DNA of 21,912 nt from an uncultured Myxococcales bacterium (GTDB taxonomy: Bacteria; Myxococcota; UBA4151): positions 1 to 21,912 of the forward strand of contig CAXGWI010000050.1 in NCBI GenBank assembly GCA_964013405.1, in the 5' to 3' direction. Positions within the stretch are counted from its first letter, which is position 1, and each line of letters starts with the position of its first letter. Position numbers and translations under genes: made by a program. The notes beneath the pieces were generated by a model that did not search any database, was not told where the DNA came from, and worked only from the letters and a program-made list of their open reading frames with translations. Positions 2 to 18,570 of this stretch are shown piece by piece.

Positions 2-1288
2 GATGAGGTTTACCGCGTGATGAACTCGGGGAAAGAGCATCGCCACTTGCAAGGGCACGATGGCCTGACCGCTGAAGACTTCGCCGCTGCGCGCGACGAC
101 GACGGGCGGCGGGTCTCCTTCTTCTTCCGGCTCACCGAGACTCCAGCCCCCCAACACCAACACCTGACCATTATCGAAGACGGTGGCGCTGTGGTCCCAG
201 CGGGGGCCGCTGGCGATCTCAAGGCCGACGGCTTGACCCAAATTGGGGTCGTAGACTTCGACGGCCTGGGCTGGTTCCGGCTCACCACCGAACTCGGTGA
301 TGGTGCGCCCTCCGATGAAGACAACCCGACCGTCGGGCAGCGTGCTGGCGCTGTGGCCGAAGCGACCCACGTTCATGGCGCCCACGGGGTTGATGCTGCC
401 GTCCGTGGGGTCAAAGATTTCCAGACTCCCGGTGGCTTCGGCGCGGGCGGGAATCGGGCTGGTCAGCCCGCCGGAAATGAGCACTCGCCCATCGGGGAGC
501 AGGGCCAGGGCTGGCTGGATGCGGCCCACTTCCATGGGGCCGTGCCAACTGGGACTGCCATTGTTGGGATCGAAGACTTCCAGGGTGCGGTCCGCCTGAC
601 TGCGGCGATTGAGCCCACCGGCGATGACCAGGCGCCCATCGGGGAGTTGCAGGCTACCGGCCTGGCTCCGGGCTTGTTGGCCGGCGAACTGGGCTTGAAA
701 GTGACCATCTTCGTAAATGGGAAAGCCGCCGTCAAAGCGGCGTGGCGGGCCAAAGTCTGGTCGGCCTGCATCCCGAAAGCCTGCGTCAGGACGGCTGCTG
801 GAGCCTCCATCCACTGGGGGAGGGCCTGCGTCGGGGGGTTGAACCTGTTCAAAACTACGACCCATCACGAGCACGCCTGTGGGATCCGGGCAGAGCACGT
901 CGGCGTTGATGTCAGGGTGGTCGATGGCGATGGTCGCCGCATGCCCAGCGCCACCGCCGCCGACACCGATGCGGGGTCCGTAGGTGACCGAAAACTCCGC
1001 TTCTTGCCCACTCCCGATGACATCCACTGCCTGGGGTGGCGCGCTGAACTGTTGCTGAACAATCGGGCTGGTTCCGTCCCGCCAGCGAATCTCAAAATCG
1101 GTCAGTGCGGTGTTGCCGGTGTTGATGACTTTGAAGTTGAGGGTCCGAGTCTGCCCCACGGGAATCTCACCGAAATCCAGATCGGTGGGCTCCACTTCGT
1201 AACGACACACTCGGGTGGTGAGGTTGGGGTCCTCGCATTCGCAGCCCAGGAGGGCGATGGGGAACAGAAGCAGGCTTCGTTTCAACAC
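2..1288 (-). CDS. Lipoprotein with N-terminal ASH/choice-of-anchor-D-like Ig domain and Kelch-repeat beta-propeller (partial, runs off the left edge)
   Basis: Hand translation of the minus strand from GTG at 1288 gives MLKRSLLLFPIALLG-CECEDPNL (lipobox), then EPTDLDFGEIPVGQTRTLNFKVINTGN (ASH/Ig signature) and a PDAG/DGG linker. Kelch repeats follow: ARSQAGSLQLPDGRLVIAGG..LEVFDP, GRIQPALALLPDGRVLISGG..LEIFDP, GRFGHSASTLPDGRVVFIGG..VEVYDP, PRWDHSATVFDNGQVLVLGG, and the start of a fifth (PRVHHAVNLI). There is no stop before position 1, which explains its absence from the ORF track. Confidence 0.88.
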   Translation of the reverse strand, partial: MLKRSLLLFPIALLGCECEDPNLTTRVCRYEVEPTDLDFGEIPVGQTRTLNFKVINTGNTALTDFEIRWRDGTSPIVQQQFSAPPQAVDVIGSGQEAEFSVTYGPRIGVGGGGAGHAATIAIDHPDINADVLCPDPTGVLVMGRSFEQVQPPDAGPPPVDGGSSSRPDAGFRDAGRPDFGPPRRFDGGFPIYEDGHFQAQFAGQQARSQAGSLQLPDGRLVIAGGLNRRSQADRTLEVFDPNNGSPSWHGPMEVGRIQPALALLPDGRVLISGGLTSPIPARAEATGSLEIFDPTDGSINPVGAMNVGRFGHSASTLPDGRVVFIGGRTITEFGGEPEPAQAVEVYDPNLGQAVGLEIASGPRWDHSATVFDNGQVLVLGGWSLGEPEEEGDPPPVVVARSGEVFSGQAIVPLQVAMLFPRVHHAVNLI

Positions 1289-1301
1289 AGTCTCTCTTTC
1301 A

Positions 1302-2273
1302 TCACGCTTCGGGAGGATCGCCCAAAAGGTCCTGGACGTCCACGAGTCCAACGACTCGGTGGTTTCGATCGAGCACTGGCGCTTGATCGAGACTGGAGGT
1401 GGACAGGACCGCCTCTGCATCCTGCACCCGGTCGTCGGGGTTGAGGGTGGTGGGTTCAGCCGTCACATGCTGGCTTAAGTCGCCTTCAAGATCGGCTTTA
1501 CCGAGACTCACCAGTCGACGGAGGTCTCCATCGGTGAAAATGCCCAGCAGATGATCTTCACCATCCACCAGGAGTGCACAACCGGGCCTGCCCGGGGTTT
1601 CACTCATGACCGCCAGTGCCGCTTGAAGTTTGGCTGGAGCCCGGAGCAGGGGCAGCATTTCCCCTTGCCGCATCACCGCAGAGACGGGTCTGAGCCGGCG
1701 TCCGAGACTGCCGCCCGGGTGGTTGCGGGCAAAATCCTCGGGGGTCGTGCCGAGGGTTTGGGCCACTGCCATCGCCAGTGCGTCGCCCAGGGCGAGCATG
1801 ACCGTGGAGCTGGTTGTGGGGGCCAGGCCCAAGGGGTCTGCTTCATCGAATTGCCCAGTGGCGATGCAGACGGTGGCCGCTTTGCCTAAGGGGGAATCGG
1901 CCCGCGCCGTCATGGCGATCAACTGACAGCCTAAGGCTTTGAGCGGACCGAGAAGGGCGACGACCTCACCAGTTCGGCCCGAGTTGGAGAGGGCGAGGAC
2001 CACATCGCCCCCTTTGACTTGACCCAAATCGCCATGGACCGCTTCGGCCGGGTGTAAAAAGAAGGAGGGCCGGCCGGTGCTCGCCAGGGTGGCGGCGATT
2101 TTTTTGCCCACATGACCGGCCTTCCCCATGCCGGTGACGACGACACGGCCACGGCACTGAGCCATCATGTCGACGGCCTGCTCAATCTCGTCACCCAGGC
2201 TGTCATGGAGGCGCAGCAAGGCCTGGGCTTCCATGGCGAGGACCTGCTTCGCTGTCTCGAGTGGGCTGGTCAT
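1302..2273 (-). CDS. kdsD: KpsF/GutQ/KdsD family D-arabinose-5-phosphate isomerase (SIS domain + CBS pair)
   Basis: Motifs GRVVVTGMGKAGHVGKKIAATLASTG, FLHPAEAVHGDLG, LSNSGRT.E, EADPLGLAPTTS, FARNHPGGSLG, and CBS motif GIFTDGDLRR. I prefer the ATG at 2273 over the TTG at 2294 because of the promoter geometry. Confidence 0.93.
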   Translation of the reverse strand: MTSPLETAKQVLAMEAQALLRLHDSLGDEIEQAVDMMAQCRGRVVVTGMGKAGHVGKKIAATLASTGRPSFFLHPAEAVHGDLGQVKGGDVVLALSNSGRTGEVVALLGPLKALGCQLIAMTARADSPLGKAATVCIATGQFDEADPLGLAPTTSSTVMLALGDALAMAVAQTLGTTPEDFARNHPGGSLGRRLRPVSAVMRQGEMLPLLRAPAKLQAALAVMSETPGRPGCALLVDGEDHLLGIFTDGDLRRLVSLGKADLEGDLSQHVTAEPTTLNPDDRVQDAEAVLSTSSLDQAPVLDRNHRVVGLVDVQDLLGDPPEA

Positions 2274-2308
2274 GGCGGCAGTCTGCGCTGTCAAAGCATG
2301 GGTGGCAA
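2274..2308 (-). promoter_or_regulatory. Putative sigma70-type promoter for kdsD, probably leaderless
   Basis: Minus strand reads TTGCCA(2308-2303)-N17-CAGACT(2285-2280)-N6-ATG(2273). No Shine-Dalgarno (SD) sequence is present. Confidence 0.5.
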
Positions 2309-2331: not shown

Positions 2332-2372
2332 TTGATTTAACGACCGCTCAGATTAGACTCTACGCAAGGAGG
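2332..2372 (+). promoter_or_regulatory. Putative sigma70-type promoter and RBS for the HMA-thioredoxin/barrel operon
   Basis: TTGATT(2332-2337)-N16-TAGACT(2354-2359), then AAGGAGG(2366-2372) 7 nt before GTG 2380. Confidence 0.55.
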
Positions 2373-2379
2373 CGTTCCG

Positions 2380-3072
2380 GTGGCGTTTGGGTGGGCGAAA
2401 CGGGCGAGTGGCTGGTTCACTGTAATCGCCTGCCTGTTGCTGTTTGCTTGTGCTCATGGACCGCCCGCTCACTTTAAGCCGGCTGTGGTGTCCTTGCAGG
2501 ATCTTTACTGTGCCACTTGTGGCGATGCGGTGGTCGGTCGTTTGGGCAACGAGTCTCGAATTCATGGGCCTCGTTTCGATTTGAAGTCCGTCGAAGTCCA
2601 CTTTCACCACAATGGAGAGACGCTTGGCGTGGCCGAGGTGCTCAAGATGATTGAGCGGATGGGTTTTAAGGGAGTCGAGGGGGCTGGCAAGGGAAGCTAT
2701 GCCGCCGATGTTGAGTTCCCGGAGAGTTTCGATTTCAAAATCATTTCCGGCGCCGGAGAAGACGTGGATATCGAGGCGCATCTCGCCATCGAAAAAGTGA
2801 CGGTGGTGGAGTTTTATGCCCCTTGGTGCGGGCCGTGTCGCGACACCGATAAAGCCATGCGGATGCACATGAAGGATGATCGGGAAGTGGCCATGCGAAA
2901 GGTCAACGTGGTGGATTGGACCACGCCGGCCGCCCAGCGTTATCTGGGAGCCGTCAGCGAACTACCCCTCGTGATCGTCTACGACAAAGGGGGTAAGGAA
3001 GTGGACCGATGGGCTGGCTTTAAAGAGGCGCGTCTCGCCAAGGCGCTCGGCGATGCAAAGGCCCGCCCTTGA
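2380..3072 (+). CDS. Lipoprotein: HMA-like (CxxC) domain fused to a thioredoxin domain
   Basis: Signal with lipobox LLFA-C. HMA-like segment VVSLQDLYCATCGDAVVGRL...VLKMIERMGFK, with CxxC after the first strand and GF at the end. Thioredoxin segment KVTVVEFYAPWCGPCR...VSELPLVIVYDKGGKEV, with the WCGPC active site and cis-Pro. Strong RBS. Confidence 0.85.
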   Translation: MAFGWAKRASGWFTVIACLLLFACAHGPPAHFKPAVVSLQDLYCATCGDAVVGRLGNESRIHGPRFDLKSVEVHFHHNGETLGVAEVLKMIERMGFKGVEGAGKGSYAADVEFPESFDFKIISGAGEDVDIEAHLAIEKVTVVEFYAPWCGPCRDTDKAMRMHMKDDREVAMRKVNVVDWTTPAAQRYLGAVSELPLVIVYDKGGKEVDRWAGFKEARLAKALGDAKARP

Positions 3073-4112
3073 GGTTCCTTTTTGGTCTTTGCGCCCTGGG
3101 GCTCGCCATCGCTCCATCCCTCGTACGGGCCGCAGCCTGCAGCGGCTGCACCAACCCAAGACTACAAAACAACCTCGGCTTGGATGCACGAAACCCCCAA
3201 GCGGGGGCCTTGAGTCTGCGATTGTCCTTGGGAGGAACCCAAACCCATGCGTCCCACGCGGTGGATGAGGAGCAATACGAACCCAACCACGACCCGAATC
3301 AGCCTGGCGCCCATGCCCATGTGCAGGCGGCGACCCATGACCTTGACTTTGTCTTGGCCAATTTCAGCCTGGGGCTTGATTACGCCTTCAGCACCAAGGG
3401 GGCGTTGAGCCTGCAGGTGCCCCTACGGCGGGTGGATGTGGTGGCCCGTTTTCTCGATGAAGCCGGTGGCGAGATGACCGGTTTTGAGAGCATTCATCAC
3501 CGCACAGAAACCCTCCAGGGCTTGGGGGACCCAGAACTCGGCTACACCCATCTAGTGCTTCAACCCACGGCCCGTTTGCCCCTGACTCTTTTGCTGACCG
3601 GTGGGCTCAGCCTTCCGCTGGGGGGCGTGGTGGAGAACCCCTTTGAATTGGGGCGGGACGGCAAAGATCATCAGCACATCTTCTTTGGCACGGGAACGGT
3701 GGATCCGTTGTTGGGCGTGGCCCTTGCTTTCAACCGAGTGACTTGGGGGGCAGCAGGCTATGCTCGGCTTCGTCACGCCCTCTACAGCAATCACCATGAT
3801 TACAACGCGGGCACGGAGCTGACCGCCGGGCTTAGTGCCGGCAGTGGTTTTGGGCTGGAGGGTTTGAACCTGCGTGCGAGCACGGAAGTATTTTGGCAGC
3901 GCCCGGCTCGATGGGGTGACGAGGTGGCGAAAAACTCAGGGCGCATCGACCTCATTCCCGGTCTCTCCCTCAGTTATGCCTGGAAAGAGCGCCTCACCGT
4001 GATGGCCATGCTTCGCCGCCCCATCACCTTGGCGGTGGAGGGAGGGCAGTTGGACTTAGGCTTTCATGGGGCTTTAGGCCTGCGCTGGCTGGTGTTGAAG
4101 CCAGCGAGCTAA
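3069..4112 (+). CDS. Exported His-rich outer-membrane beta-barrel ('transporter'/Phenol_MetA_deg-like) with N-terminal CxxC
   Basis: The TTG start overlaps the upstream TGA (TTGA). Signal peptide ends VRA|AACSGC. It has alternating amphipathic strands (LGLDYAF, LSLQVPL, LSLSYAW, LGLRW) and family-like motifs GLGDP, GLSLPLG and FGTGTVDP. It contains 15 His, six of them clustered in HASHAV..NHD..AHAH..THD. Confidence 0.75.
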   Translation: MRFLFGLCALGLAIAPSLVRAAACSGCTNPRLQNNLGLDARNPQAGALSLRLSLGGTQTHASHAVDEEQYEPNHDPNQPGAHAHVQAATHDLDFVLANFSLGLDYAFSTKGALSLQVPLRRVDVVARFLDEAGGEMTGFESIHHRTETLQGLGDPELGYTHLVLQPTARLPLTLLLTGGLSLPLGGVVENPFELGRDGKDHQHIFFGTGTVDPLLGVALAFNRVTWGAAGYARLRHALYSNHHDYNAGTELTAGLSAGSGFGLEGLNLRASTEVFWQRPARWGDEVAKNSGRIDLIPGLSLSYAWKERLTVMAMLRRPITLAVEGGQLDLGFHGALGLRWLVLKPAS

Positions 4113-4118
4113 ACCAAG

Positions 4119-7100
4119 CTAGCGGACAAGGAGATAGGCAACCCGAGCGCTGCCATGATGACCCGCTGCATGGCCCGGCGATTTGCCCAGGGCTGTCCAG
4201 TGAAAGCCCTCGCAGTAGCCTCGCCAATTCCAGTTGGATGAGAACGCACCCAGTCGGAAGCGCTGCTGGTCGTCGCCGGCACCGGCGTTGGTCCGCCGGT
4301 TGATCCCCATGTACTGGCAGGAGGCTCGGGGGTTAGCCCCCGACTCGGAGAGATCCAGCCAGTCTTGTTGCGTGGTCTCAAGGGCTCTTGCGGGCCCGTT
4401 AAACAGGGCGTGAAGGCTTAAGGGGCCGGCGGGGATCGCCTCTTCGCCCTCGATGGGCTCAGGGGGTGGGCCAATGGGCGCTCGTAGGAGGCGTAGACTG
4501 TCCGAGGGGCTGTCCATGGCGACGAGCAATTCGGTCACCTCCAGTCGGCTCCAGCCCGGGTATTTGTAGTCCTCTGAGCCCGAGAGATGGGGTGTTTCTG
4601 GGTTCAGGGCTTCTTCGTTGGTCCAGAATTCGGCCTCGAAGTTCAGGCTCTCGCTGCGCCCGTTGGCTTTGAGCGCCAGGGTCCAAGGGAGGCCATCACC
4701 GTAAGGCACGCAGTAGGCCAAGAAGGCCTGGTTGGGGTCCTCGCTGTCCGGATTGATCCAACGGGGGCGCGGGACGATGGCGTTGGCCCCCAAGTCCGCA
4801 CAACTGTTGAGCGCGCTGGCTCGTTCGGAGCCGGCGCGTAAGAGGCAGTCTTGTCCGCAACTGGGATGATCTGGATCGGCGCCTGGATCGCACTCTTCGC
4901 CGGGGTCCACGTCGCCGTCGCCGCAGTGCTCCTTACCCTTGGCGCCGCAGTCCGTGGGGCCGACGAGTGGAGGTCCAAAGTCGTAGCGCTCGTCGGGTTG
5001 GACGACGAAGTCGCCACAGCTTGCTCGCCAGGTGCTGGGCTGTTCCAACTCGAAGCGGTCGCCGCGCATGAACGGCGCCCAGCCGTCATCCTCGCTCTGC
5101 TCCAACACGAAACCAGGGCGGTCGCTGTAGGTCGGTGGAAGGACAGCAAAAGGAACCACGTCATCGAGACGTCGACTGTTCAGATCCCAGTTATCGTCGT
5201 TGCGAAAACGAACACCAGTAGCCCAAAGCAGCAAGGTCGGATCATGCCAGCCACTTTTTCCGATATGCTCGTGATTGTTTAGGTGTGTGCCTGTGGCGGC
5301 ATCTCGAATGGTCCCGCCAGCCTGTAGAACAAAGCGACCGTCCCGGCTAAACCATGCGCTGCCACCCCCTGTGCGCCAGCGATAGACCTCTGCATCGGCC
5401 GGGATCATCTCGTTACACCAGGCGCCAAAGCGACCGCATTCCCGTTGCAGCAGCAGGTCGTCCGTGACCGGGTTGATGGAGGCGTTAATCAGATTCTCAT
5501 AACCATTGTAGGGGTCGATCCCTAAGCGCCGTATGACACTGCCCTCAAGGTCATAGATCACCACCTCATCGGTGCCTTGATTGACGGTAACGATTCGCTG
5601 GCCATGGCCACCTAAATCGAAGCCAGGGATGGTCGTCTCGTGGTCAAAGGCATTGATCACCTCGCCGGTTGCAGCCTCGTAGATTCGAAAGGTCGAGCCC
5701 GGCTGGGTGTTGCTGCAACAGCCAGTGTAGCGACGGGGGGAGGTGACGAAGATGCTGCCGTCAGGGCTGAAAACACCGCTCCAGCCATCGACCACGTAGA
5801 GCACCTCACCGTCAGAGGTTCTCCAGACGATGGTCTGGGCCCAGACCCCGTCACCGATCTGGGTGGGGATTCGAGAGCTTCCCAGGCGCCCGTCGGGGGA
5901 GATCGAGCCCAAGTGGGCGCCCTGGGGCGCGGCAAAGGATCGAAGCACCTGACCACTGGCGGTATCAAAGACCCGGACCATGCCGGCGTTAAAGGTGAAG
6001 AGTTCCTGGCCATCGGCCGAGGCAAAGACGCTATGTCCTGTAGTCTGGTGGACGAGGTTCACCCGAGGCCAGGGTTGAACGGGCACCAGGTCACCACCGG
6101 GACCCAACTCACCGATGCCCTCGAAATGAACTCGGGCAGCTTGGGCGAAGATCGGCTTGTGCCCCCAGAGCCCCTGATTGCTCATGACACCAAAAGCCGC
6201 GTTGGGATCACCGACAAAGGGGTTGCCCTGGGCCTCCAGGGTCGAGTGACCGTTCCCGTTGCAGTCATCGTTCCAACCCAGACTCCCAAAGCAAAGGCGT
6301 AGGCGGTTGGGCGCCCTTTGAATACGCAGGTTGTCAACGGGTTGGTTGGCCACGGCCTGGGAAAGGATGAGGGTGACTCCGTCGCCAAAGAAGGGAGCTG
6401 CTGCCTGGCCCGGATAGAGGCGCAGTCGGGGGAGGCGATGGTCATCAGTGGTGGCCATGGGGACCGCTAAGTCGTCGATGCCGTCCTCGTTGAAGTCGCC
6501 CAGTGCGCAGGCGGTACCGCTGCGGCTGGCTGCGGGAAACCGCGGGTTTGCACCTTCGGAAAGCCAAGTCCGGGTGGCCTCGAAGGTCTCCGGCAACTGG
6601 CCGACGGCATCGGGGTCGATCACCCCGTGCCAGCCGCCCAGACTGTCGAGCCCACAGAGGACAATTTCCTGCACGCCATCGTCATCAAGATGGCGTCGAA
6701 AGCCACCCTTGATCTCTGGGCTGCCACCTTCTTCGCTTAAGGGTAAGACCTGGCTACTCACCGTGGACCACTTCAGCGGCGGTCCCATGTAGATCTGCTC
6801 CCAGGGCCCGACGGTGTGACCGTCCGGTTGGACGATGCGCAGGGCTTTCACCCGAGCATCCTTGAACCAGGATGGCTGCAAGTTGATGAAGAATTCGTGG
6901 AGGTTGACGGTGGTGCGCCAGCGGATGGGCAGATCCCGTTCTACCTCGTAACGCCAACTGCCATCTCCCAGTTGTTCCACATCCCCAAACTGGATCTTTG
7001 AGCAGCGTCGATAGGGGTCGTCCCCCTCCTCCACACAGACACCGCTGGCCTGGGCCGTCATCTCGGCTGGTCGGATAATTCGCTGGGCCGGGATGCGAAT

Positions 7101-10100
7101 GATCAACTCTCGTTCTTCATTGCCCCGCAGTTGCAGGTGGGGGCCGCGGATGTAGCAGGGGCCCGCACAGCCATGGGGGGCATGGGCAGGCCAAGCACAT
7201 GAACCGAAACGAGGGCAATCGCCAATGCGTTGGTCGAGCCCGTCGATGACGGGGCTGACGACACCGGTGAGGGGGATGGTCAGAGCTTCGGCCTCTTCCC
7301 ATTCGCCCCACTCGTGGCGAGGATGAAGCACACAGTCACTGTTGTGGTCCGGGCCACCGGCCACAAACCAATGGGCTTGCCCAGCCTCATCCAGGGTTTG
7401 CATTCGATTGTGAATCCAACAGTTTTCGCCGTCCAGCCAGACCTGCATGCCTGCGTTTACATTGCCGTAGCGGTCCCGGGCATGAAGGGTCACCGAGGTG
7501 GCCACCGGCGGCGGCTGACGCCATTCGGAAGGGGGGCGTTGTAGGCTGACCAGTTCAATGCCCTCCCCCGTGACGGGGCCACCGCCGAGGGGCGGACCCG
7601 GCTCCTGCAGCACTCGGAGCGATCGGTGGGCCTGGAGTCCCACTCGCAAGCTCCAGGTGCAGTGACCCAAATGGGTTCCGGCGATGAACTCGACGCCCTC
7701 ATCCCCGCCAAGGACGAGTTCACCGGCCTCGTCACTGATCAATCCATCGACGCCAACCCGGCCACAGTGAGCCGGGTCGCCCTCGATCAATTCGACGACA
7801 ACGCCCTGATCAGCGATGCCGCCGCCAACGTCATTTTCGACCCGTAGGGTGACTGGGGAGGTAAGCCCTTCTCCCACAGGCATGGTGATTTGGGCGGCGC
7901 GGTGTCCGTCGGCGCCCTGGATGTCGACGAGCCGTCGTCCCCGCTGGTAGAGGGCGATGTGCTGGGGGATGCCCGCGCCGACAACGATCTCCATATCGGC
8001 CACGGCCGAGAACTCAATTGGGTTGGAAAAGGCATGGGCCTTCAGGGGGTGGCTCCCCTCCTCATTTACGGCCAGGACCCAGACTGTGACATCACCATTA
8101 GCGTCGGTGGTCCCTGAATCATGACTCAGGCTGTAGCCAAGCTCCGGTGCGCTGCACGCCCCTTCATTGCTCACGCCTTCGCAGGTGCAGCCTTCGCTGT
8201 CTCGGTGGCAGCGCTCTGCTCTGCCTCGACAGTTGCCGAAAATGAAGCAGTCGTTGTCATTGGAGCAGAGTCGATTGCGGTTCTCAGCGCAAGTCCTGGG
8301 ATTGAACTGGACACCGATGCCGGGCACACCGTTGCCACCAGCATCGAGCACTCGAGCGGTGACAGGGCCGGCGGCACCGCCGAGGGGCGCCTGGATCTGT
8401 CCCCCCGGAACGAGCACCACCCGAGAAGGCTCGCCGGGAAGCACGTAGATCGGCAGGGTGGCCCGGGTGGTTTGGCCGGCGGCTTGCAGGGTGAGCAAGG
8501 TGGGGAAGAGCAGGGTGCTGGGTCCCTCGGCGTAGATGTCGAAGGGAATCTGCCCGTTGATATCTGTGCGACAGGAACTCTGATGGAGATCCGTTCCCCT
8601 CGGCAGGGCGTCACCCGCCAGCTCTTGACGGCAATTGGCCGAACTGCCGTAGCGTAGAACCGATCCCGGCACGAAGGGAAGCACGCTGACCTCCAAGCGG
8701 GAATCGGCCGCAGGGTTGCCGTCGGCATCGATTGCGAAGGCGGTGAAGCGAATGGGCTGGCCGATGGTCGCGTAACCCAAGTCTTCCGGGGCGACGCCGT
8801 CGGCAGGTCGGATACGAATCTGATCGATTCTGCCCACATCCAGACGAATTTGGACGGTGACTTGCTGGTCGGTGCCCACCAAGCTGGCCACCAATTCAGC
8901 GCCGGCCGGTAGGGCGGCAGGGCAGCGCAGCAGGACTCGAGCCAAGCCGACGTCATCGGAGAGCGCCAATAAGGGGCTAAGCAACTCGATCTCACCCCGG
9001 GCCTCGATGGCGACAGACGCCCCGGCCACGGGCACATCGTTGCGGCTCAGTACCCGAAAAAGGATAGGCGGCGAAAAGCCGTTGGGGTCGCAGCGAACGA
9101 GCGGAAACCCACCTTCTAGCGCGTTGACCAACTCCAACTGCGAGGGGGCGCCGCTGCGGGTGGCTCCCGAAAGGGTGAAGGCATTGTCATCATCATCCAT
9201 CAGCGCCTCGGGCTTGATGAGATCGGGGATGTGGATGTTCTTTTGCCAGGCACCGGCCTCCTGGCCGGCTAGCAAGCAAAAGACGAGGCGCCCTTGCGCG
9301 TCGGTGATGCCTTCCACGCGCGTCAGCGCTTCCCCTGTGTTGCCGCAGTCGGTGATTTCATCCCGGGGGGCGATGAGCACCCGGTCACCAGGGCCGTCAT
9401 CGATCAAGCCACCATCGGCACCTCCCCCCACCTGACCGCCGTCCTGCTGCGGTGATCCGGCTTCAGGGCGGAGCCCCCCGCCGTCCATGGGTCCATCGCG
9501 GGGTTGGGCGTCGGGCTGCGCACCGCCCTCGAGAAGGGCCGCGTCGCCGGGGACTTGACGCCCCGCCTCCAAGGCGGCGTCCACGGTCTCGCCGTCATTC
9601 CCGCCCCCATCAAGGCTCCTTCCGGGGCCATCGAGTGTCCCTGAGCCGGCATCTGGCGTTCCTGTATCTTGGGGCGGCGTGCCAGCGTCGGGCTGGGGTT
9701 CTGGTTCTGGCTCAGGGGGGTCGACCAGCACCACCCGGGCCCCGGCGAGGGGATTGCCAAAGGCGTCGGTGAGGGTGATGGTCAGGGGTGCAGCCTCGTC
9801 ATCATCCATGGCCAGCGGCATCGGCGCCAAGCCGAGAAGGGGGTCGATCTCTCCTGGTTGCCAGCGTGCAACCCCTGACTTCGGCACCTGAATCGTAAGG
9901 CGCACTGATCCCTGATCTGCTTGGGGCTCGATGCGAATCTCGTCTTGGACAAACAAGGCCCGCTGGGCCTGGGCTTTCAAGGTGAAGACTTCGGTGGGGC
10001 CGACGAGACGAAAGATCACCGTACAGATCCCCCGCTCTTCGTCTTCGACCGGCGTGACCGGGGTGACGCAGCGGTCGCCTCGAGGAAAGCGCACGAGCTC

Positions 10101-10394
10101 GTCAAAGGAATCGGTGACCACGCTGACCACGATGGGTTCACCGCTGAGCCCTTGGTTTTGCATCCCCCGTACTTGCATCCGCAGTTGGTAAACCTGTCCG
10201 GCGATCACCGTGTCGGCGGTGAGTGGGGTGCCGCCGCCGGCTGGCTCAAGGCTCAGGATCTCAAGGCTGTTGGGGCCATCTTCGCCCAGCGCCTGCAGCT
10301 CAGGCAAAGGGGCCTGGCAAGCCAGGGCAAGACAAAGGGCGAGGGATCCGACTGGGCGAATCCCTATGGTCTTTGCTGGTCCACCGCTCCTCAT
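4119..10394 (-). CDS. Giant (~2091 aa) mosaic surface lipoprotein/adhesin: invasin-type Ig (Big_1-like) repeats, FG-GAP motifs, WD40-like propeller, myxobacterial disulfide repeat, fibrinogen-related C-terminal domain
   Basis: Uninterrupted ORF. From ATG 10394: MRSGGPAK...LALCLALA-C (lipobox). About 6 repeats of 'D.xGNxVxG.xV ... TD.xG' (e.g. TDAFGNPLAGARV, IDADGNPAADSRL, LDAGGNGVPGIGV, RDRYGNVNAGMQV). FG-GAP motif ALGDFNEDGIDDLAV. Propeller blades SADGQ/SPDGR/FSPDGS/FSRDGR with VRVFDTASGQ and RIYEAATGE. Disulfide repeat CGDGDVDPGEECD. C-terminal domain NSCADL..RWINPD..FLAYC..WTLALK. Confidence 0.88.
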   Translation of the reverse strand: MRSGGPAKTIGIRPVGSLALCLALACQAPLPELQALGEDGPNSLEILSLEPAGGGTPLTADTVIAGQVYQLRMQVRGMQNQGLSGEPIVVSVVTDSFDELVRFPRGDRCVTPVTPVEDEERGICTVIFRLVGPTEVFTLKAQAQRALFVQDEIRIEPQADQGSVRLTIQVPKSGVARWQPGEIDPLLGLAPMPLAMDDDEAAPLTITLTDAFGNPLAGARVVLVDPPEPEPEPQPDAGTPPQDTGTPDAGSGTLDGPGRSLDGGGNDGETVDAALEAGRQVPGDAALLEGGAQPDAQPRDGPMDGGGLRPEAGSPQQDGGQVGGGADGGLIDDGPGDRVLIAPRDEITDCGNTGEALTRVEGITDAQGRLVFCLLAGQEAGAWQKNIHIPDLIKPEALMDDDDNAFTLSGATRSGAPSQLELVNALEGGFPLVRCDPNGFSPPILFRVLSRNDVPVAGASVAIEARGEIELLSPLLALSDDVGLARVLLRCPAALPAGAELVASLVGTDQQVTVQIRLDVGRIDQIRIRPADGVAPEDLGYATIGQPIRFTAFAIDADGNPAADSRLEVSVLPFVPGSVLRYGSSANCRQELAGDALPRGTDLHQSSCRTDINGQIPFDIYAEGPSTLLFPTLLTLQAAGQTTRATLPIYVLPGEPSRVVLVPGGQIQAPLGGAAGPVTARVLDAGGNGVPGIGVQFNPRTCAENRNRLCSNDNDCFIFGNCRGRAERCHRDSEGCTCEGVSNEGACSAPELGYSLSHDSGTTDANGDVTVWVLAVNEEGSHPLKAHAFSNPIEFSAVADMEIVVGAGIPQHIALYQRGRRLVDIQGADGHRAAQITMPVGEGLTSPVTLRVENDVGGGIADQGVVVELIEGDPAHCGRVGVDGLISDEAGELVLGGDEGVEFIAGTHLGHCTWSLRVGLQAHRSLRVLQEPGPPLGGGPVTGEGIELVSLQRPPSEWRQPPPVATSVTLHARDRYGNVNAGMQVWLDGENCWIHNRMQTLDEAGQAHWFVAGGPDHNSDCVLHPRHEWGEWEEAEALTIPLTGVVSPVIDGLDQRIGDCPRFGSCAWPAHAPHGCAGPCYIRGPHLQLRGNEERELIIRIPAQRIIRPAEMTAQASGVCVEEGDDPYRRCSKIQFGDVEQLGDGSWRYEVERDLPIRWRTTVNLHEFFINLQPSWFKDARVKALRIVQPDGHTVGPWEQIYMGPPLKWSTVSSQVLPLSEEGGSPEIKGGFRRHLDDDGVQEIVLCGLDSLGGWHGVIDPDAVGQLPETFEATRTWLSEGANPRFPAASRSGTACALGDFNEDGIDDLAVPMATTDDHRLPRLRLYPGQAAAPFFGDGVTLILSQAVANQPVDNLRIQRAPNRLRLCFGSLGWNDDCNGNGHSTLEAQGNPFVGDPNAAFGVMSNQGLWGHKPIFAQAARVHFEGIGELGPGGDLVPVQPWPRVNLVHQTTGHSVFASADGQELFTFNAGMVRVFDTASGQVLRSFAAPQGAHLGSISPDGRLGSSRIPTQIGDGVWAQTIVWRTSDGEVLYVVDGWSGVFSPDGSIFVTSPRRYTGCCSNTQPGSTFRIYEAATGEVINAFDHETTIPGFDLGGHGQRIVTVNQGTDEVVIYDLEGSVIRRLGIDPYNGYENLINASINPVTDDLLLQRECGRFGAWCNEMIPADAEVYRWRTGGGSAWFSRDGRFVLQAGGTIRDAATGTHLNNHEHIGKSGWHDPTLLLWATGVRFRNDDNWDLNSRRLDDVVPFAVLPPTYSDRPGFVLEQSEDDGWAPFMRGDRFELEQPSTWRASCGDFVVQPDERYDFGPPLVGPTDCGAKGKEHCGDGDVDPGEECDPGADPDHPSCGQDCLLRAGSERASALNSCADLGANAIVPRPRWINPDSEDPNQAFLAYCVPYGDGLPWTLALKANGRSESLNFEAEFWTNEEALNPETPHLSGSEDYKYPGWSRLEVTELLVAMDSPSDSLRLLRAPIGPPPEPIEGEEAIPAGPLSLHALFNGPARALETTQQDWLDLSESGANPRASCQYMGINRRTNAGAGDDQQRFRLGAFSSNWNWRGYCEGFHWTALGKSPGHAAGHHGSARVAYLLVR

Positions 10395-10429
10395 GGGCAA
10401 ATAGTGGCACACCTGTGGGAAAAGGCGAA
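10395..10429 (-). promoter_or_regulatory. Putative extended -10 promoter for the giant lipoprotein gene, probably leaderless
   Basis: Minus strand reads TTCGCC-N17(ending TGTGC)-CACTAT(10406-10401)-N6-ATG(10394), with no SD. The geometry matches the kdsD promoter. Confidence 0.4.
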
Positions 10430-10432
10430 TGT

Positions 10433-10453
10433 CTGTTCCCCTTTGGGGGACAG
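10433..10453. repeat. Inverted repeat in the divergent intergenic region between the giant lipoprotein gene and pccB
   Basis: CTGTTCCCC-TTT-GGGGGACAG: 9-bp arms with one T/G mismatch. Confidence 0.5.
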
Positions 10454-10506
10454 GGCTTATCAAGGACCGATCCCGTTGCTAGGAGTGCCCCGGGAAAGGT
10501 GCCACC

Positions 10507-12066
10507 ATGAGCGAGCGTAGTCATGAGAGCCTACGGGCCCAGTTAGCCGATCTCGAGGCCCAAACCGCTGTCGGCGGTGGGGAGGCTCGGATCGAGCGCC
10601 AACACAACGCCGGCAAACTCACGGCTCGAGAGCGGCTGGATCTTCTGTTGGACCCGGGCAGTTTTACGGAACTGGATGCCTTTGTGCGTCATCGCTCCAC
10701 AGCCTTTGGTTTGGATAAAAACCGGCCCCTCGGGGATGGGGTGGTGACGGGTCACGGCACCATCGATGGACGAACCGTCTTCGTCTATGCCCAGGACTTT
10801 ACCGTCATCGGCGGTTCTCTCTCTGGCGCCCATGCGGCGAAGATCTGCAAAATCATGGAGCGGGCACTGGAAGTGGGCGCACCGGTCATCGGTCTCGCCG
10901 ACAGTGGCGGGGCTCGGATCCATGAAGGGGTGGAGAGCCTCGGCGGCTATGCGGACATCTTTTTGCGCAACACGCTCGCCAGTGGCGTCGTGCCCCAGAT
11001 CAGCTTGATTCTCGGCCCTTGCGCCGGCGGTGCGGTCTACTCACCGGCGATCACCGACTTCGTGGTCATGGCCCAGGACACCTCCTACATGTTCATCACC
11101 GGCCCCGATGTGATTAAGACCGTTCTCCACGAGGAGGTAACGAAAGAAGAGCTCGGCGGGGCGATGACCCATGCATCGACCTCGGGCGTGAGCCATTTCG
11201 CCTGCCAGGATGAAGCCCAGGCGATCGCACTCACCCGCCAGTTGATGGGGTTTCTGCCCAGCAATAACGCCGAAGAAGCGCCCCTTCAGGCCTGCGCCGA
11301 TCCGGTGGATCGAGCCTGCGATGCTTTGAAGGAGTTGGTGCCGGTGAATCCGAATCAACCCTACGATATTCGGGAGGTCATTGCGGAAGTGGCCGATGAT
11401 GCCCAGTTCCTCGAAGTGGCCGAGCATTTTGCCGGCAATATCGTCGTGGGTTTCTTGCGGATCGGCGGCCGAAGCATCGGTGTGGTGGCGAACCAACCGG
11501 CCTTACTCGCTGGCTGTCTCGATATCGATGCCAGTGTCAAAGCAGCCCGTTTCGTGCGGTTCTGCGATGCCTTCAATATTCCCCTTCTCACCCTCGTCGA
11601 TGTGCCCGGTTTCTTGCCCGGAAAAGACCAAGAACATGGCGGTATCATTCGCCATGGCGCCAAACTGCTCTACGCCTATGCAGAAGCCACCGTGCCCAAG
11701 GTGACGGTGATTACCCGCAAAGCCTACGGTGGCGCCTATGACGTGATGGCATCGAAGCACTTAAGAGCAGACTTTAACTTTGCCTTCCCCACCGCCGAGA
11801 TTGCCGTGATGGGACCCGATGGAGCCGTCAACATCATCTTCCGTAAAGAATTAGCCGATGCGGAAGACCCAGTGGCTCGAAAAGCCGAACTGGTGGCCGA
11901 TTATCGGGCTGAGTTCGCCAATCCCTACAAGGCGGCAGAATTGGGTTACATCGATGCGGTGATTCGACCGGAGGATCTCCGTCGTCGCCTCGCCGCTAGC
12001 TTTCAACTCTTGGGCAATAAGCGCCAAGAGCGGCCCCCTCGCAAGCACGGAAATATTCCGCTCTAG
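10507..12066 (+). CDS. pccB: Acyl-CoA (propionyl-CoA) carboxylase carboxyltransferase subunit beta
   Basis: [97 protein letters not shown]-terminal RKHGNIPL. Confidence 0.95.
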
Positions 12067-12118
12067 GCGGAAAATAAGCTAGTTATAGCCCACGAACGTT
12101 CAGGCGGATCAAACCCCT

Positions 12119-12790
12119 ATGGCACTTCAAAGACTCATTGCATCTGGAATCGGGCGAAAGCTCCTTGTGGCCCTGACGGGTCTCGGGCTCGTCGGCTTTC
12201 TGGTGACCCATGTTGCGGGCAATATGAATTTGTACCTGCCGGCCAAGGACGGCCAGCCGGCGATCAATACGTATGCCGATCAGTTGCATCATCTTCCTGG
12301 TTTCTTCTTTCTCGAGTTAGGTTTGGCGGTAATGTTTATCGCGCACATTTTGCTTACGATTGGGCTGGTGCTCAGCAATCGTGCAGCAAAAGGTAGCCGG
12401 TATGCGGTGAACGCCACGAAACAAGAGCGAGGCGGTGTTTTGGCCGGCAGAACCATGGCGATTTCTGGCATCGTCGTGCTGGTGTTCTTGGTGGTTCATA
12501 TCGGTGACTTCCGCTTGCAGCGAGAGGCGATCGAAGGGGCTGGAGGCTTGGAAGCGAGCCTCCTTGCTAAGCTCGCTGTGCCCTGGCGGGCAGCCCTGTA
12601 TGTGGTCGGTAGTATCTTGGTCTGCTTCCATATGACCCATGGGGTCGCGAGTGCCTTTCGTTCCCTGGGAATAGCCCATGAAAAGTACACGCCGATGATT
12701 GAAAAGACGGGCTATGTCTTAGGGATTGTGATCGGACTCGGCTTCGCCAGTATCCCGGTCTACGCCCTGATACAGGGAGGTGGAGCATGA
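12119..12790 (+). CDS. sdhC: Succinate dehydrogenase/fumarate reductase cytochrome b subunit (single 5-TM, b558-type)
   Basis: Starts [14 protein letters not shown] and has five hydrophobic segments. His residues in FLVTH, FIAHI, LVVHI and CFHMTHG. It overlaps the sdhA start (ATGA). Confidence 0.92.
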
Positions 12791-14706
12791 TTCGTGATTT
12801 AGACGGAAAATGCCCTAGTGGAGCGCTGGCTGATCGCTGGGCTAAATACAAAGCCGAGGCCAAGCTGGTCGGGCCCATCAATCGCCGAAAATATGAAGTG
12901 ATCATTGTGGGTACCGGTCTCGCTGGCTCCTCGGCGGCTTCCACCCTGGCGGAGCAGGGCTACAAGGTGAAAGCCTTCTGCTTCCATGGCAGTGCTCGCC
13001 GGGCGCACAGTATTGCCGCCCAGGGCGGGATCAATGCCGCGAAGAATTATCAAAACGACAACGACTCGATCTTTCGCCTTTACTACGACACCATCAAGGG
13101 TGGTGACTTCCGTAGCCGGGAATCCAACACCTATCGTCTCGCGGAAGTCAGCGCCAACATCATCGATCAAGCCGTTGCCCAGGGGGTTCCCTTTGCCCGG
13201 GAGTACGGTGGGACCCTCGCCAATCGAACCTTTGGCGGGGTGTTGGTGAGTCGAACGTTCTATGCAGCGGGGCAAACAGGTCAGCAATTGCTGCTGGGCG
13301 CTTATTCTGGACTGATGCGCCAAGTGGACTGTGGTCAGGTGGAAATGCACACCATGCGCGACATGCTCGACGTGATCGTTGTGGATGGCAAAGCACGAGG
13401 AATTGTGACTCGCAATTTGGTGACCGGGGAACTTGAGACCCATCTCGCAGATGCGGTGCTGTTGTGCACGGGAGGGTATTCGAACGTTTACTTCCTCTCC
13501 ACCAACGCCATGAAGTCCAACGTCACCGCCACCTGGCGAGCCGCTCGTCGGGGCGCTTACTTTTCAAACCCTTGCTACACTCAGATCCATCCCACTTGTA
13601 TTCCCGCCCATGGTGACCATCAGTCGAAGCTCACGTTGATGAGCGAGTCATTGCGCAACTCAGGGCGGGTTTGGGTGCCCGCCGCGCCCGGTGATACCCG
13701 GGCGCCGAGTCAGATCCCAGAGTCCGAACGGGACTATTATTTGGAGCGCAAGTATCCGACTTTCGGCAACATGGTGCCCCGGGATGTGGCGAGCCGAAAC
13801 GCAAAGTATGCCTGCGATGAAGGCAAGAGTGTCGTTCCGGGTCAGCGAGCGGTCTACCTCGACTTCAAAGATGCCATCGCCCGCGACGGTCGGGACAGTG
13901 TAGAAGAACGCTACGGCAACCTCTTCCACATGTACCAGAAGATCACTGGCCAGAATCCTTACGAGCGGCCGATGCAGATCTATCCAGCACCCCATTACAC
14001 CATGGGGGGGCTCTGGGTGGACTACAACCTCATGAGTAACATCCCAGGGCTTTTCGTCCTTGGCGAGGCGAACTTCTCGGACCACGGTGCCAATCGTCTC
14101 GGTGCGAGCGCACTCATGCAGGGCTTGGCCGATGGCTATTTTGTGATTCCTTACACGTTAGCGGGCTACCTCGCCGGTGAGCAGTTTGAGCCGGTCTCCC
14201 CTTCTGATCACGCGGTGACAGGCACCCTTGAAGAGACTCGTGAGCGGATCGATGGCTTGGTCACTTGTGGTGGTTCTCGCAGTGCCGACTCCTTTCATCG
14301 GGATTTGGGCTTAAAAATGCTCGACGAAGTGGGGATGAGCCGAACGAAGGCGGGGCTCGAAGGCACTGTGGAGCACATCCGTAATCTGCGTGCTGAGTTT
14401 AAAGAGAATCTGAACGTTCCTGGCTCTGCTGACGGCCTGAACCCGGAATTGGAAAAAGCCCTGCGTGTTGCGGACTTTCTTGAGTTTGCTGAGGTGATGA
14501 CCTTGGATGCTTTGACTCGAGAGGAAAGCTGCGGCGGACATTTTCGAGAAGAGTATCAAACCGACGGGGGGGAAGCGAAGCGGGATGATGAGAATTTCAC
14601 CCATGTGGCAGCCTGGGAGTACCGAGGAGAATCCGAAGCACCCATTCGGCACCAGGAGCAACTTGAGTTCACCGAGGTGATGCCCAGTCAGAGGAGTTAC
14701 AAATAA
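12787..14706 (+). CDS. sdhA: Succinate dehydrogenase/fumarate reductase flavoprotein subunit
   Basis: IIVGTGLAG Rossmann motif, [12 protein letters not shown] (covalent FAD His), [46 protein letters not shown]. Confidence 0.97.
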
Positions 14707-15470
14707 TGAGTCAGACGATTTCTCTGAAGTTACGGGTCTGGCGGCAAAACGGTCCCGATGATGCGGGGCGGTTTGAAAATTTCGATCTTGCTGATGTTCC
14801 TACGGATCTGAGCTTTCTTGAGATGCTCGACATGCTCAACGAGCAGATTCTCCAGGCCGGGGGTGATCCGATTGTCTTTGATCATGACTGTCGAGAGGGG
14901 ATCTGTGGTTCCTGTGGCTTTATGATCGACGGACAAGCCCATGGGCCCGAGCGGGGCACCACGGTCTGCCAGTTGCATATGCGGCACTACCAAAATGGCG
15001 ACACCGTGGTCTTGGAGCCATGGCGAGCAACGGCCTTCCCCATCTTTAAAGACCTGATGGTGGACCGCAGTGCTTTTGATGCCATTCAGCAGGCGGGCGG
15101 TTACATTTCCGTCAATTGCGGCAATGCACCCGATGCGAACTCGGTTCCCGTGGGCAAAGAAGAGGCTTCCGATGCCTTTGAATCGGCGGTTTGCGTCGGC
15201 TGTGGCGCTTGCGTGGCCTCGTGCAAAAACGCCTCAGCGAGCCTGTTTACAGGGGCCAAGATTAATCATTTGGCGAACCTGCCCCAAGGTCGCCCTGAAG
15301 CAGCTCGCCGGGCCATTCGAATGGTGGAAACCATGGAAGATCGAGGCTTCGGAGCGTGCTCCAACACATTGGAATGCGAAGCAGCTTGTCCCAAAGAGAT
15401 TTCCATTAAGGTCATCCAGAAGATGAATAGGGAATACCTCTTTGCCAAGTTGACTCACCCCACCGACTAA
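14706..15470 (+). CDS. sdhB: Succinate dehydrogenase/fumarate reductase iron-sulfur subunit
   Basis: CREGICGSC...C (2Fe-2S), CVGCGACVASC and CSNTLECEAACP clusters. TAATG overlap with sdhA. Confidence 0.96.
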   Translation: MSQTISLKLRVWRQNGPDDAGRFENFDLADVPTDLSFLEMLDMLNEQILQAGGDPIVFDHDCREGICGSCGFMIDGQAHGPERGTTVCQLHMRHYQNGDTVVLEPWRATAFPIFKDLMVDRSAFDAIQQAGGYISVNCGNAPDANSVPVGKEEASDAFESAVCVGCGACVASCKNASASLFTGAKINHLANLPQGRPEAARRAIRMVETMEDRGFGACSNTLECEAACPKEISIKVIQKMNREYLFAKLTHPTD

Positions 15471-15481
15471 GGAGTCGTCTG

Positions 15482-16996
15482 GTGCCTGATTCACCGATTC
15501 GTCGCGTGCTCATCGCCAATCGTGGTGAGATTGCTGTGCGCGTCATTCGTAGTTGCCGCGAGCTAGGCATTGAGACCGTCGCAATCTATTCGGACCCGGA
15601 TCGGGAGAGCCTTCATGTACGCCTGGCCGATCAAGCCTATGCTCTGGGCGGTGAGACCTCCGCAGAGTCCTATCTCGTCAGCGAAAAGGTGCTCGCCGCG
15701 GCAAAGGCTGCTGGCGCCGATGCTATTCATCCCGGTTATGGGTTTCTGAGTGAGAATCCGGATTTTGTCCGCGCTGTTGATGCCGCTGGCCTCACCTTCA
15801 TCGGGCCCCGGCCCCTGGCCATGGAGCAAATGGGCGAGAAGACCCGGGCTCGCAGTGTGATGCAGGAAGCAGACGTGCCCGTGGTGCCGGGGAGTGAAGC
15901 CCTGGCCGACGGCGCGCAAGCCGCGGCCTTTGCCGCCGACATCGGTCTACCTGTGATGGTTAAAGCAGCTGCTGGAGGCGGCGGTAAGGGCATGCGGCGG
16001 GTCGATGACCCGAGCGCGGTGGCCAAGGCCTTCGACGCGGCCCGTAGCGAGGCCAAAAAATCTTTCGGTGATGACCGGGTGTACGTGGAGAAATTTCTCC
16101 AACGCCCTCGCCATATCGAGGTGCAGATTCTCGCCGACACCCACGGTAACTGCGTGCATTTGTTCGAGCGGGAATGCTCCATTCAACGGCGCCACCAAAA
16201 GGTGATCGAAGAAGCGCCATCGCCCTTTTTGGACGAAGCATTGCGAGCCCAGATGGGTGCGGTGGCCGTCCAGGCTGCCAAGGCAGTGGATTACATCGGT
16301 GCTGGAACCGTGGAGTTTCTCTGCGATGCTGAGCGTAATTTTTACTTTTTAGAGATGAACACCCGCTTACAGGTGGAACATCCGGTGACCGAGTGGATTA
16401 CCGGGCTTGATCTGGTGGCCTTGCAGATCCGTATTGCAGAAGGTCACCCCCTGCCCTTCAAGCAAGAAGATCTCGCCATCAGCGGTCATGCCATCGAGGC
16501 TCGGATCTACGCCGAAGACCCCCAGAGTGGCTTCCTGCCGGCGCCGGGCAAGATCGAACATCTCCACGTGCCAGCGGGCCCTTACGTTCGGGATGATTCC
16601 GGGGTGGTCTTTGGTAGCGAGGTGACCCCGCTTTACGATCCGATGATCTCCAAGCTCAGTGTTTGGGGGCAGGATCGGGCCCAAGCCATCGCCCGGCTGG
16701 ATCGAGCCTTGGGCGAGTATAAGGTGATCGGTGTGACCACCAACATCAGCTTTTTGCGCCGTGTTTTGGCCGAGCCGACCTTCCAAAGCGGGGACTTTGA
16801 TACGGGCTTTATCGGCAACGTGATTCAGGGGGCCAGTGAGCCTGACGAAAAATATGAAACCATCGCCATGTTGGCGGCGGTGATGGATGCTTTTGAGCGG
16901 GATGAGGCCGCTGAGGCGGCCTTCAAGCCCCAGAGCTCTGCCCAGGGCGGCGGTCAGGCCTGGCGCCGCTACCAACTGTTGGGGGGCCGGTCATGA
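15482..16996 (+). CDS. accC: Biotin carboxylase subunit of acyl-CoA (propionyl-CoA) carboxylase
   Basis: VLIANRGEIAVR, IHPGYGFLSEN, KAAAGGGGKGMR, ERECSIQRRHQK, FLEMNTRLQVEHPVTE, YDPMISKL. AAGGAG RBS before the GTG. No fused biotinyl domain. Confidence 0.95.
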   Translation: MPDSPIRRVLIANRGEIAVRVIRSCRELGIETVAIYSDPDRESLHVRLADQAYALGGETSAESYLVSEKVLAAAKAAGADAIHPGYGFLSENPDFVRAVDAAGLTFIGPRPLAMEQMGEKTRARSVMQEADVPVVPGSEALADGAQAAAFAADIGLPVMVKAAAGGGGKGMRRVDDPSAVAKAFDAARSEAKKSFGDDRVYVEKFLQRPRHIEVQILADTHGNCVHLFERECSIQRRHQKVIEEAPSPFLDEALRAQMGAVAVQAAKAVDYIGAGTVEFLCDAERNFYFLEMNTRLQVEHPVTEWITGLDLVALQIRIAEGHPLPFKQEDLAISGHAIEARIYAEDPQSGFLPAPGKIEHLHVPAGPYVRDDSGVVFGSEVTPLYDPMISKLSVWGQDRAQAIARLDRALGEYKVIGVTTNISFLRRVLAEPTFQSGDFDTGFIGNVIQGASEPDEKYETIAMLAAVMDAFERDEAAEAAFKPQSSAQGGGQAWRRYQLLGGRS

Positions 16997-18464: not shown

Positions 18465-18519
18465 CCAAAGATCCTTTTTAGGGGGTGGCACAACCTAAGG
18501 GGATCTGGTCCAGAGTGAA
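18465..18519. promoter_or_regulatory. Imperfect inverted repeat overlapping a putative promoter and the SD of the barrel gene
   Basis: AGATCCTTTTTAGG(18469-18482)...CCTAAGGGGATCT(18494-18506). The minus strand has TTCACT(18519-18514)-N16-TAGGTT(18497-18492). Confidence 0.45.
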
Positions 18520-18570
18520 AGAGGCGGCTTTACCTTTTCTCTATGACCACCAAAAGGCTAGGAGCCGCCT

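Follow-up and report, generated by a model that had tools for sequence, protein, structure and literature searches.

The stretch of DNA analysed here (the window) comprises 21,912 nucleotides of an uncultured Myxococcales bacterium (assembly GCA_964013405.1, contig CAXGWI010000050.1) and carries on its forward strand two overlapping genes. Gene 1 (2380-3072, 230 aa, GTG start) encodes a predicted lipoprotein with an HMA-like and a thioredoxin domain, and gene 2 (3069-4112, 347 aa, TTG start) a predicted outer-membrane barrel of the COG4313/FapF fold, whose N-terminal cysteine pair most relatives encode with one or two in-frame TGA codons. A sequence-only reading of this DNA had pointed out the overlap TTGA (3069-3072), which suggests translational coupling; the partner gene ends in an ATGA, GTGA or TTGA overlap in 59 of 62 related loci. 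That reading had also assigned the pair its own promoter and ribosome binding site. The binding site is present (AAGGAGG, 2366-2372, 7 nt upstream of the GTG), but the promoter did not hold up: the sigma-70-like candidate TTGATT-16 nt-TAGACT (2332-2359), found by eye, is weak with 8 of 12 matches, a scan with a 9-of-12 threshold returned 0 sites where shuffled sequences gave 0.4, and the candidate is not above chance.

The translation of gene 1 contains the three motifs that had been proposed, namely a lipobox-like LFA-C24 (Cys24 at 2449-2451), C44-A-T-C47 (2509-2520) within the HMA-fold domain (residues 32-100 approximately) and the active site W149-C-G-P-C153 (2824-2838) of the thioredoxin domain (approximately 109-228). 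A loose lipobox pattern was found in 51 of 55 testable partner proteins. Pfam analysis confirmed the thioredoxin domain (PF00085, 40.9 bits, cut-off 23.5), and a Foldseek search with the model of gene 1 returned thioredoxins. The protein missed the cut-off of the TrxA equivalog TIGR01068 (45.6 vs 96.8 bits) and stayed below every NCBIfam equivalog cut-off. W149, C150, C153 and P196 at the cis-Pro position are invariant in 62 of 62 rows of thioredoxin partners. WCGPC is not shared by the whole family; the dipeptide varies among 67 partners (CAPC 17, CPPC 14, CGPC 13, CAAC 7, others); Leu precedes the conserved Pro in 66 of them. With this Leu and the varied dipeptide they presumably resemble reductive periplasmic thioredoxins.

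For the N-terminal domain of gene 1 the window protein itself gave no match to the Pfam HMA family PF00403 at E 0.05, whereas 12 of 15 aligned HMA-type homologs matched it at E 0.01, and CATC is invariant in all 15. The structural model (pLDDT 89.8) shows residues 32-100 in the order beta-alpha-beta-beta-alpha-beta with the CxxC between strand 1 and helix 1, and positions 27-103 of the family profile match the metal-binding domains of the copper ATPases ATP7B and CopA. The domain is therefore predicted to adopt an HMA fold of the metal-binding type, in line with the earlier proposal; it lacks the GMxC consensus. The accompanying statement that HMA domains are normally cytoplasmic leaves out the known periplasmic ones (MerP, TIGR02052).

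Gene 2 starts with a predicted signal peptide (residues 1-21) with cleavage after V-R-A, leaving the mature N-terminus AACSGC as previously read, with C24-S-G-C27 encoded by TGC..TGC at 3138-3149. The model contains 12 strands (pLDDT 85.8), and its best Foldseek matches are FapF and Pput2725 (4rl8, E 2.9e-12, TM 0.57/0.72) at 12-14% sequence identity to these structures. The suggested family PF13557 was matched below its gathering cut-off in Pfam (17.7 vs 22 bits) and is carried by 8 of 120 homologs among the matches listed, but the model has the 12-stranded COG4313 fold, and the ESM Atlas neighbours of the barrel are PF13557-bearing clusters (0.98). A barrel without a TonB plug domain also fits the TonB independence that had been considered. 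Searching with the barrel profile yielded 325 representatives at E 1e-30 or better.

The histidines noted earlier are present, but only part of them is conserved. Within the His-rich segment (six His in residues 60-90, 3255-3338), H63 and H90, which flank predicted extracellular loop 1, are kept in 103 of 107 alignment rows each; H60 (29/107), H82 (2/102) and H84 (2/105) are poorly kept and H74 lies in an insertion. The whole six-His segment was thus rejected as a conserved site. H143 (106/107) and H144 (103/107) at 3495-3500 belong to predicted loop 2, and H201 and H203 of the HQH motif at 3669-3677, both 107/107, to predicted loop 3, whereas the HH at 242-243 is retained in 6 and 34 of 107 rows. 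Met is not conserved in the barrel alignment. H63, H90, H143, H144, H201 and H203, 96-100% conserved, are predicted to lie on extracellular loops 1-3, the sides being assigned from the alternating long and short strand connections of the model, and not in the lumen, so that the proposed His-lined pore was not borne out.

A relative of the pair with 90-95% identity was detected in a marine metatranscriptome assembly. Of 40 listed differences (17 further are unlisted) 36 change the third position of a codon, which suggests that selection acts on both proteins. The run contained 0.09 of the query words, and its contigs, mostly of this identity and no proof of transcription, cover parts of both genes and not the neighbouring kdsD.

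To compare the N-terminal motif we used the best 80 of 139 GTDB loci with a related barrel, which are mostly from Myxococcota, with some from Acidobacteriota and others. With U standing for an in-frame TGA, the motif is UxxU in 37, CxxU in 17, CxxC in 20 and a single Cys in 4 loci, and is cut off in 2. Archangium and Pyxidicoccus are among the genera with CxxU. TGA forms (TGA..TGA or TGY..TGA) thus account for 54 of 78 readable loci and align with the Cys of homologs. The form UxxC is found in 0 of these 78, and no further in-frame TGA occurs between the motif and the HQH motif in the 80 loci. The sequence-only reading had recognized the CxxC and expected its conservation, which the aligned Cys pair confirms together with CATC and the six His; it had missed that the pair is the Cys form of a TGA-coded motif. 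Gene callers truncate proteins of this family: only 21 of 120 homologs among the matches listed retain the N-terminal CxxC, and many start just past it.

In 53 of 54 TGA forms the second codon is followed, at a distance of 15-18 nt, by a hairpin loop that starts with G; the hairpin occupies the position corresponding to 3150-3190 of the window. By the same best-hairpin test it was absent from all 20 CxxC forms, all 4 single-Cys forms and the window copy. The energy threshold was -5 kcal/mol, and some hairpins are weaker than the -7.5 of PMC13188914. As the peptide sequence itself favours a hairpin, synonymous resampling served as control: in a looser test 52 of 53 TGA forms contained a hairpin where 16.2 were expected, compared with 1 of 20 CxxC forms. 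The bacterial model of the selenocysteine insertion sequence (SECIS) requires a loop starting with G 16-37 nt after the UGA (PMC13188914), and both UGAs lie approximately within this spacing. For UXXU hydrogenases, too, a single SECIS has been proposed to act on both UGAs, with a warning that Cys might be inserted at UGA instead (PMC13582414, in the part available).

The distribution of the selenocysteine (Sec) machinery follows the motif. The gene selA was detected in 50 of 53 genomes with a TGA form (48 over the cut-off) and in 4 of 4 single-Cys genomes, but in 1 of 20 CxxC genomes; a tRNA-Sec above 64 bits was present in 45 of 53 compared with 1 of 20. Related genomes do not count as independent, but the tree requires 8 state changes. 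Searching with a DNA pattern of the motif gave matches in 45 of 401 genomes of the same phylum, with 0 in the control, and in no fewer than 121 metagenome stretches, 3 of which are short frames and likely chance matches. On this comparative evidence the TGA codons of the relatives almost certainly incorporate Sec. Two UxxU barrels of the distant subfamily discussed below were also seen on one 4.8-kb contig (L166). More distant barrels (L085, L086, L091, L094) start with CxxC as CxxCxCGDP or CATCGNP, which suggests an N-terminal Cys pair across the wider superfamily.

The genome of the window, which is 94% complete, gave no match for selA, and selB and selD remained under the cut-off; its tRNA-Sec match of 48.7 bits is a tRNA-Ser. 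For the barrel tree the motif was left out and L021, L077 (cut) and L080 (frameshift) were excluded. In this tree the window barrel and P0004, both CxxC, fall within a clade (support 99) that holds 22 UxxU and 1 CxxU barrels. Since the Cys-Cys copy nests among UxxU barrels, replacement of Sec by Cys in the window lineage is the simplest reading and, judging from the sequences, very probably took place.

The pairing of both genes, which the earlier reading had made a prerequisite of its proposal, is conserved. A thioredoxin of the gene 1 subfamily lies directly upstream of the barrel in 63 of 80 loci and is fused to its C-terminus in 10. In the fusions the thioredoxin follows the last of the 12 strands, so it is likely to be periplasmic. 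A complex prediction of the barrel with the HMA-thioredoxin protein scored 0.01, which speaks neither for nor against pairing. The HMA domain, which had been put at the core of the system, is found in the window but precedes the thioredoxin in only 15 of 80 loci; 43 carry instead a different Cys/His-rich module with the pattern C-x-H..CxxCHP..DWCxEH..CxxCHP (L030:6297-6950 and 42 other loci). This module has no name in Pfam or NCBIfam, and its best ESM Atlas match, at 0.77, is uninformative. The barrel-thioredoxin fusions contain His-rich linkers and sometimes a cupredoxin (PF13473 in 4 of 120 homologs among the matches listed). By its sequence the exchanged module attached to the thioredoxin looks metal-binding each time.

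Neighbouring genes were scanned with Pfam (141 of 249 called in GTDB loci, 124 of 214 in metagenome stretches). Most of them are unrelated, and the recurrent ones concern metals. A CusA/CzcA-type pump is found at 8 of 80 loci, about 6 of them independent, where 0.42-2.06 would be expected from the pump density in the same genomes; at 5 of the loci it passes the TIGR00914 cut-off. The background of the window genome (0.3% of 15-kb windows) was not used for this enrichment, as it has no pumps. Other neighbours are MerR-family regulators, MerT-HMA, CopA- and ZntA-type ATPases, a multicopper oxidase with a TolC-type protein, CDF and DUF4396. At two loci (L017:4810-8347, L015:4382-7888) mer-like operons with a MerR-family regulator, MerT-/MerC-like and HMA genes run into the UxxU barrel. 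At another (L122:4001-6851) a UxxU barrel-thioredoxin fusion lies directly upstream of selA; selenium uptake was considered and dropped, as this is the only locus beside selA.

From these observations we propose, with an even chance of being right, that the coupled unit serves the TonB-independent capture and entry of a soft metal, probably copper, at the outer membrane. The conserved His on the predicted outer loops would gather the metal ion, and the N-terminal pair, likely Sec in most relatives, would bind it on a predicted plug; in Pput2725, a COG4313 structure, the lumen is plugged by the N-terminus from the periplasmic side (PMC4493636, in the part available). Reduction of the pair would be maintained by the thioredoxin, which is likely periplasmic, and the metal would pass from the pair to the HMA domain. 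The electrons could come from a DsbD-type membrane protein that the window genome encodes; the thioredoxin probably acts on the barrel pair with electrons from a protein of this type. A metal is also the probable substrate of the unit. We infer all chemical steps of this mechanism; copper as the metal and the inward direction are its weakest ones. More tentatively, and with some doubt, the family could represent an unnamed, widespread class of redox-gated outer-membrane metal channels, in which a diselenide or disulfide switch on the plug would be reset by the thioredoxin, an exchangeable chaperone would unload the metal and one SECIS would serve both UGAs.

Several observations weigh against the proposed metal entry or parts of its basis. 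Barrel residues 1-34, which hold the Cys pair, have a pLDDT below 50 and were not placed by the model, and known COG4313 channels are thought to carry hydrophobic organic compounds (PMC4493636, in the part available). The tree was calculated by a quick method with a midpoint root and has several long branches. Thioredoxin is missing from 7 of 80 loci, 3 of them cut by contig ends and 4 without it. The single-Cys barrel-thioredoxin fusions L036, L042, L045 and L064 do without TGA in hosts that all have selA. A distant subfamily (L090/L236, L235) kept UxxU and the fused thioredoxin and is missing the HQH motif. A marine subfamily of low GC content, which makes up 30 of the 121 pattern matches, has UxxU, but the DNA retrieved contained no thioredoxin; its neighbours are multicopper oxidase, TolC-type, RND, HMA, CDF and DUF4396 genes. 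No metal gene was recognised in the neighbourhood of about 64 of 80 loci, and the count of 16 with such a gene is partly circular, since the queries were drawn from the same loci. The neighbouring genes suggest not one metal but several (Cu, Hg, Zn/Cd, As). Finally, neither a P1B heavy-metal ATPase, over the cut-off in 13 of 14 control genomes, nor a CzcA-type pump was found in the 94% complete window genome. That these two gave no match in this genome, whereas subunit I of a heme-copper oxidase did, makes metal supply fit slightly better than defence, bearing in mind that the genome is incomplete.

Other explanations were weighed against the same data. The pair could work as a redox conduit and not as a transporter, with electrons passing from the thioredoxin through the dithiol or diselenol of the barrel to a metal ion, a disulfide or a chalcogen oxyanion outside, which would be reduced without having to enter. 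UxxU and the thioredoxin are distributed more widely than the His motifs or the HMA domain, the lack of UxxC suggests one primary reactive position, the fusion L122 stands directly before selA, and a redox role is assumed for most selenoproteins (PMC13188914). We nevertheless regard it as unlikely, as the repeated periplasmic modules of the metal-binding type imply that something arrives there, and the marine subfamily, with no adjacent thioredoxin, is still found beside multicopper oxidase, RND and HMA genes. The direction could also be the opposite, in that the HMA domain and the Cys/Sec pair collect toxic Cu(I), Ag(I) or Hg(II) from the periplasm, which would then be retained or passed to the outside. 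The recognised neighbours are indeed mostly resistance genes (CzcA/CusA, CopA/ZntA, MerR/MerT, multicopper oxidase), but the conserved His lie on the predicted outer face and no partner efflux pumps were found in the window genome. MerT and MerP are import parts within a defence operon. Such parts are thus also found in defence operons, as PcoB illustrates (PMC9210255, in the part available), and we consider outward transport rather improbable.

A further explanation, to which we attach a small probability, is uptake of an organic molecule, perhaps a metal complex or organometal, as in COG4313 channels, with the Cys/Sec pair forming a structural or gating bond and the thioredoxin helping in folding. 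It agrees with the fold shared with Pput2725 and FapF, with the unrelated neighbours at most loci and with the hydrophobic compounds taken up by known members (PMC4493636, in the part available). Such a channel could do without a pair of costly Sec codons and their conserved hairpin, without near-invariant His at six positions and without HMA or cupredoxin modules, and the identity to both structures is low. It is very improbable that the TGA codons of the relatives are not Sec, but stops in pseudogenes or codons read as Cys or Trp. A tRNA reading UGA as Cys was reported to be frequent in UXXU-bearing genomes (PMC13582414, in the part available), one database protein (P0059) has W at the motif site, and three loci are frameshifted. 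Against this, in-frame TGA is confined to the two Cys-aligned positions, whereas the stop codon of 60 of 62 partner genes is TGA; moreover, hairpin, selA and tRNA-Sec track the TGA forms, and the motif recurs in the phylum and in metagenomes. At L026 and L048 the frame is broken in the partner gene and at L080 in the barrel, by either assembly error or decay.

Comparison with described systems places the proposed metal channel between several groups. The barrel shares with the COG4313/PF13557 channels (Pput2725, SphA, TcpY) and with FapF (5o65/5o67) the 12 strands without a TonB plug domain and, as far as the accessible parts of the sources go, a segment before strand 1 and conserved residues clustered on extracellular loops. 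The same parts describe no N-terminal Cys/Sec pair, six conserved His or dedicated thioredoxin for these proteins, and their proposed cargo is hydrophobic organic compounds or amyloid subunits, unlike the metal proposed here. PcoB is likewise a small outer-membrane barrel of copper-defence clusters with a partly obstructed periplasmic side; it is proposed to admit Cu to the periplasm within the pco defence operon, and has an electronegative funnel (all PMC9210255, in the part available), where the system proposed here would have a Cys/Sec plug with a thioredoxin. Gene 2 had no match to the PcoB/CopB family in Pfam or NCBIfam, and none was among the Foldseek matches listed. OprC, a copper importer of the outer membrane, resembles our proposal in a metal site formed by a plug Cys and barrel His, but it has 22 strands, TonB dependence, a CxxxM-HxM site, a Met track, one Cys and no thioredoxin partner, compared with 12 strands and 347 aa in gene 2; its reduction of Cu(II) was judged too slow to matter (PMC8610252, in the part available).

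Gene 1 corresponds to MerP/CopZ chaperones in the HMA fold with the CxxC after strand 1, and to TlpA, CcmG and DsbD-gamma in the thioredoxin fold with conserved WCxxC and cis-Pro position. Unlike all of these, it joins both domains in one lipoprotein, with a replaceable HMA. Among catalogued selenoproteins, UxxU is known from a Prx-like family, the metal-binding NF041115 and an FmdB family, besides a MerT-type C/SxxU, and the outer membrane is represented by the FCYXU TonB receptor (NF049945) and the GSU2204-family barrel (NF041027) (PMC13188914 Table 1). Our family has in common with the catalogue the in-frame UGA aligned with Cys, the downstream SECIS, Cys homologs in selA-less hosts and links to heavy metals, but none of the UxxU or outer-membrane entries is a COG4313-fold barrel, and the family is absent from the 119 families of this 2026 table.

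In NCBIfam 20.0, likewise, neither the window barrel nor the barrel portions of 7 relatives, 5 of which are TGA forms, are covered by a model. The main texts of BSepDB, SelCysML and deep-Sep, as far as available, contain no barrel or myxobacterial entry; a listing in supplements or database entries, which lie beyond these texts, is possible. A literature search, covering sources other than subscription papers and supplements, found no description of the family. What is new is therefore a probable two-selenocysteine outer-membrane family missing from NCBIfam 20.0 and the 2026 catalogue, to which the window adds a selenium-free copy that has an HMA partner and whose host shows no detectable Sec machinery. 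Few proteins are known for the passage of copper or soft metals across the Gram-negative outer membrane; if the proposal is true, a barrel that works without TonB and brings its own reductase would accomplish this in a new way. The natural series UxxU, CxxU and CxxC bears on what is gained from selenium and on the decoding of UGA codons that stand close together. Expression of the window's Cys form requires no Sec machinery; should the redox-gated channel be real, this selenium-free version would make the class testable in ordinary hosts.

The pair and a 2114-aa protein occupy a stretch of 8.2 kb between kdsD, which encodes a KpsF/GutQ-family (KdsD-like) isomerase (1302-2294, reverse strand) and forms the left border, and an acyl-CoA carboxyltransferase gene (10507-12066, forward strand), which is a flank and not part of the system. 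These two genes abut back-to-back in 4 of 4 same-family genomes in which kdsD was found. A close barrel was found in 0 of 5 same-family genomes, two of which have distant matches (E about 1e-4). As the same-family genomes are without the 8.2-kb stretch, the gene pair was gained here or lost there. Neither kdsD nor the 2114-aa protein recurs among the neighbour clusters of the 80 loci, and both were rejected as parts of the system. The 2114-aa protein (4119-10463, reverse strand) is predicted to be exported and has matches to Big_1/invasin-like Ig and FG-GAP domains.

Position 2-1420 (reverse strand) encodes a Kelch-repeat protein with an Ig-like domain that runs off the contig end. Two proteins, of 317 aa (17538-18491, reverse strand) and 534 aa (20232-21836, forward strand), match no Pfam or NCBIfam family over the cut-off. 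The cluster at 10507-20235 contains genes for acyl-CoA carboxyltransferase, succinate dehydrogenase C/A/B, biotin carboxylase, biotin carrier and methylmalonyl-CoA mutase and by annotation represents the pathway from propionyl-CoA to succinate; in relatives the sdh genes are not located between the carboxyltransferase and biotin carboxylase genes.

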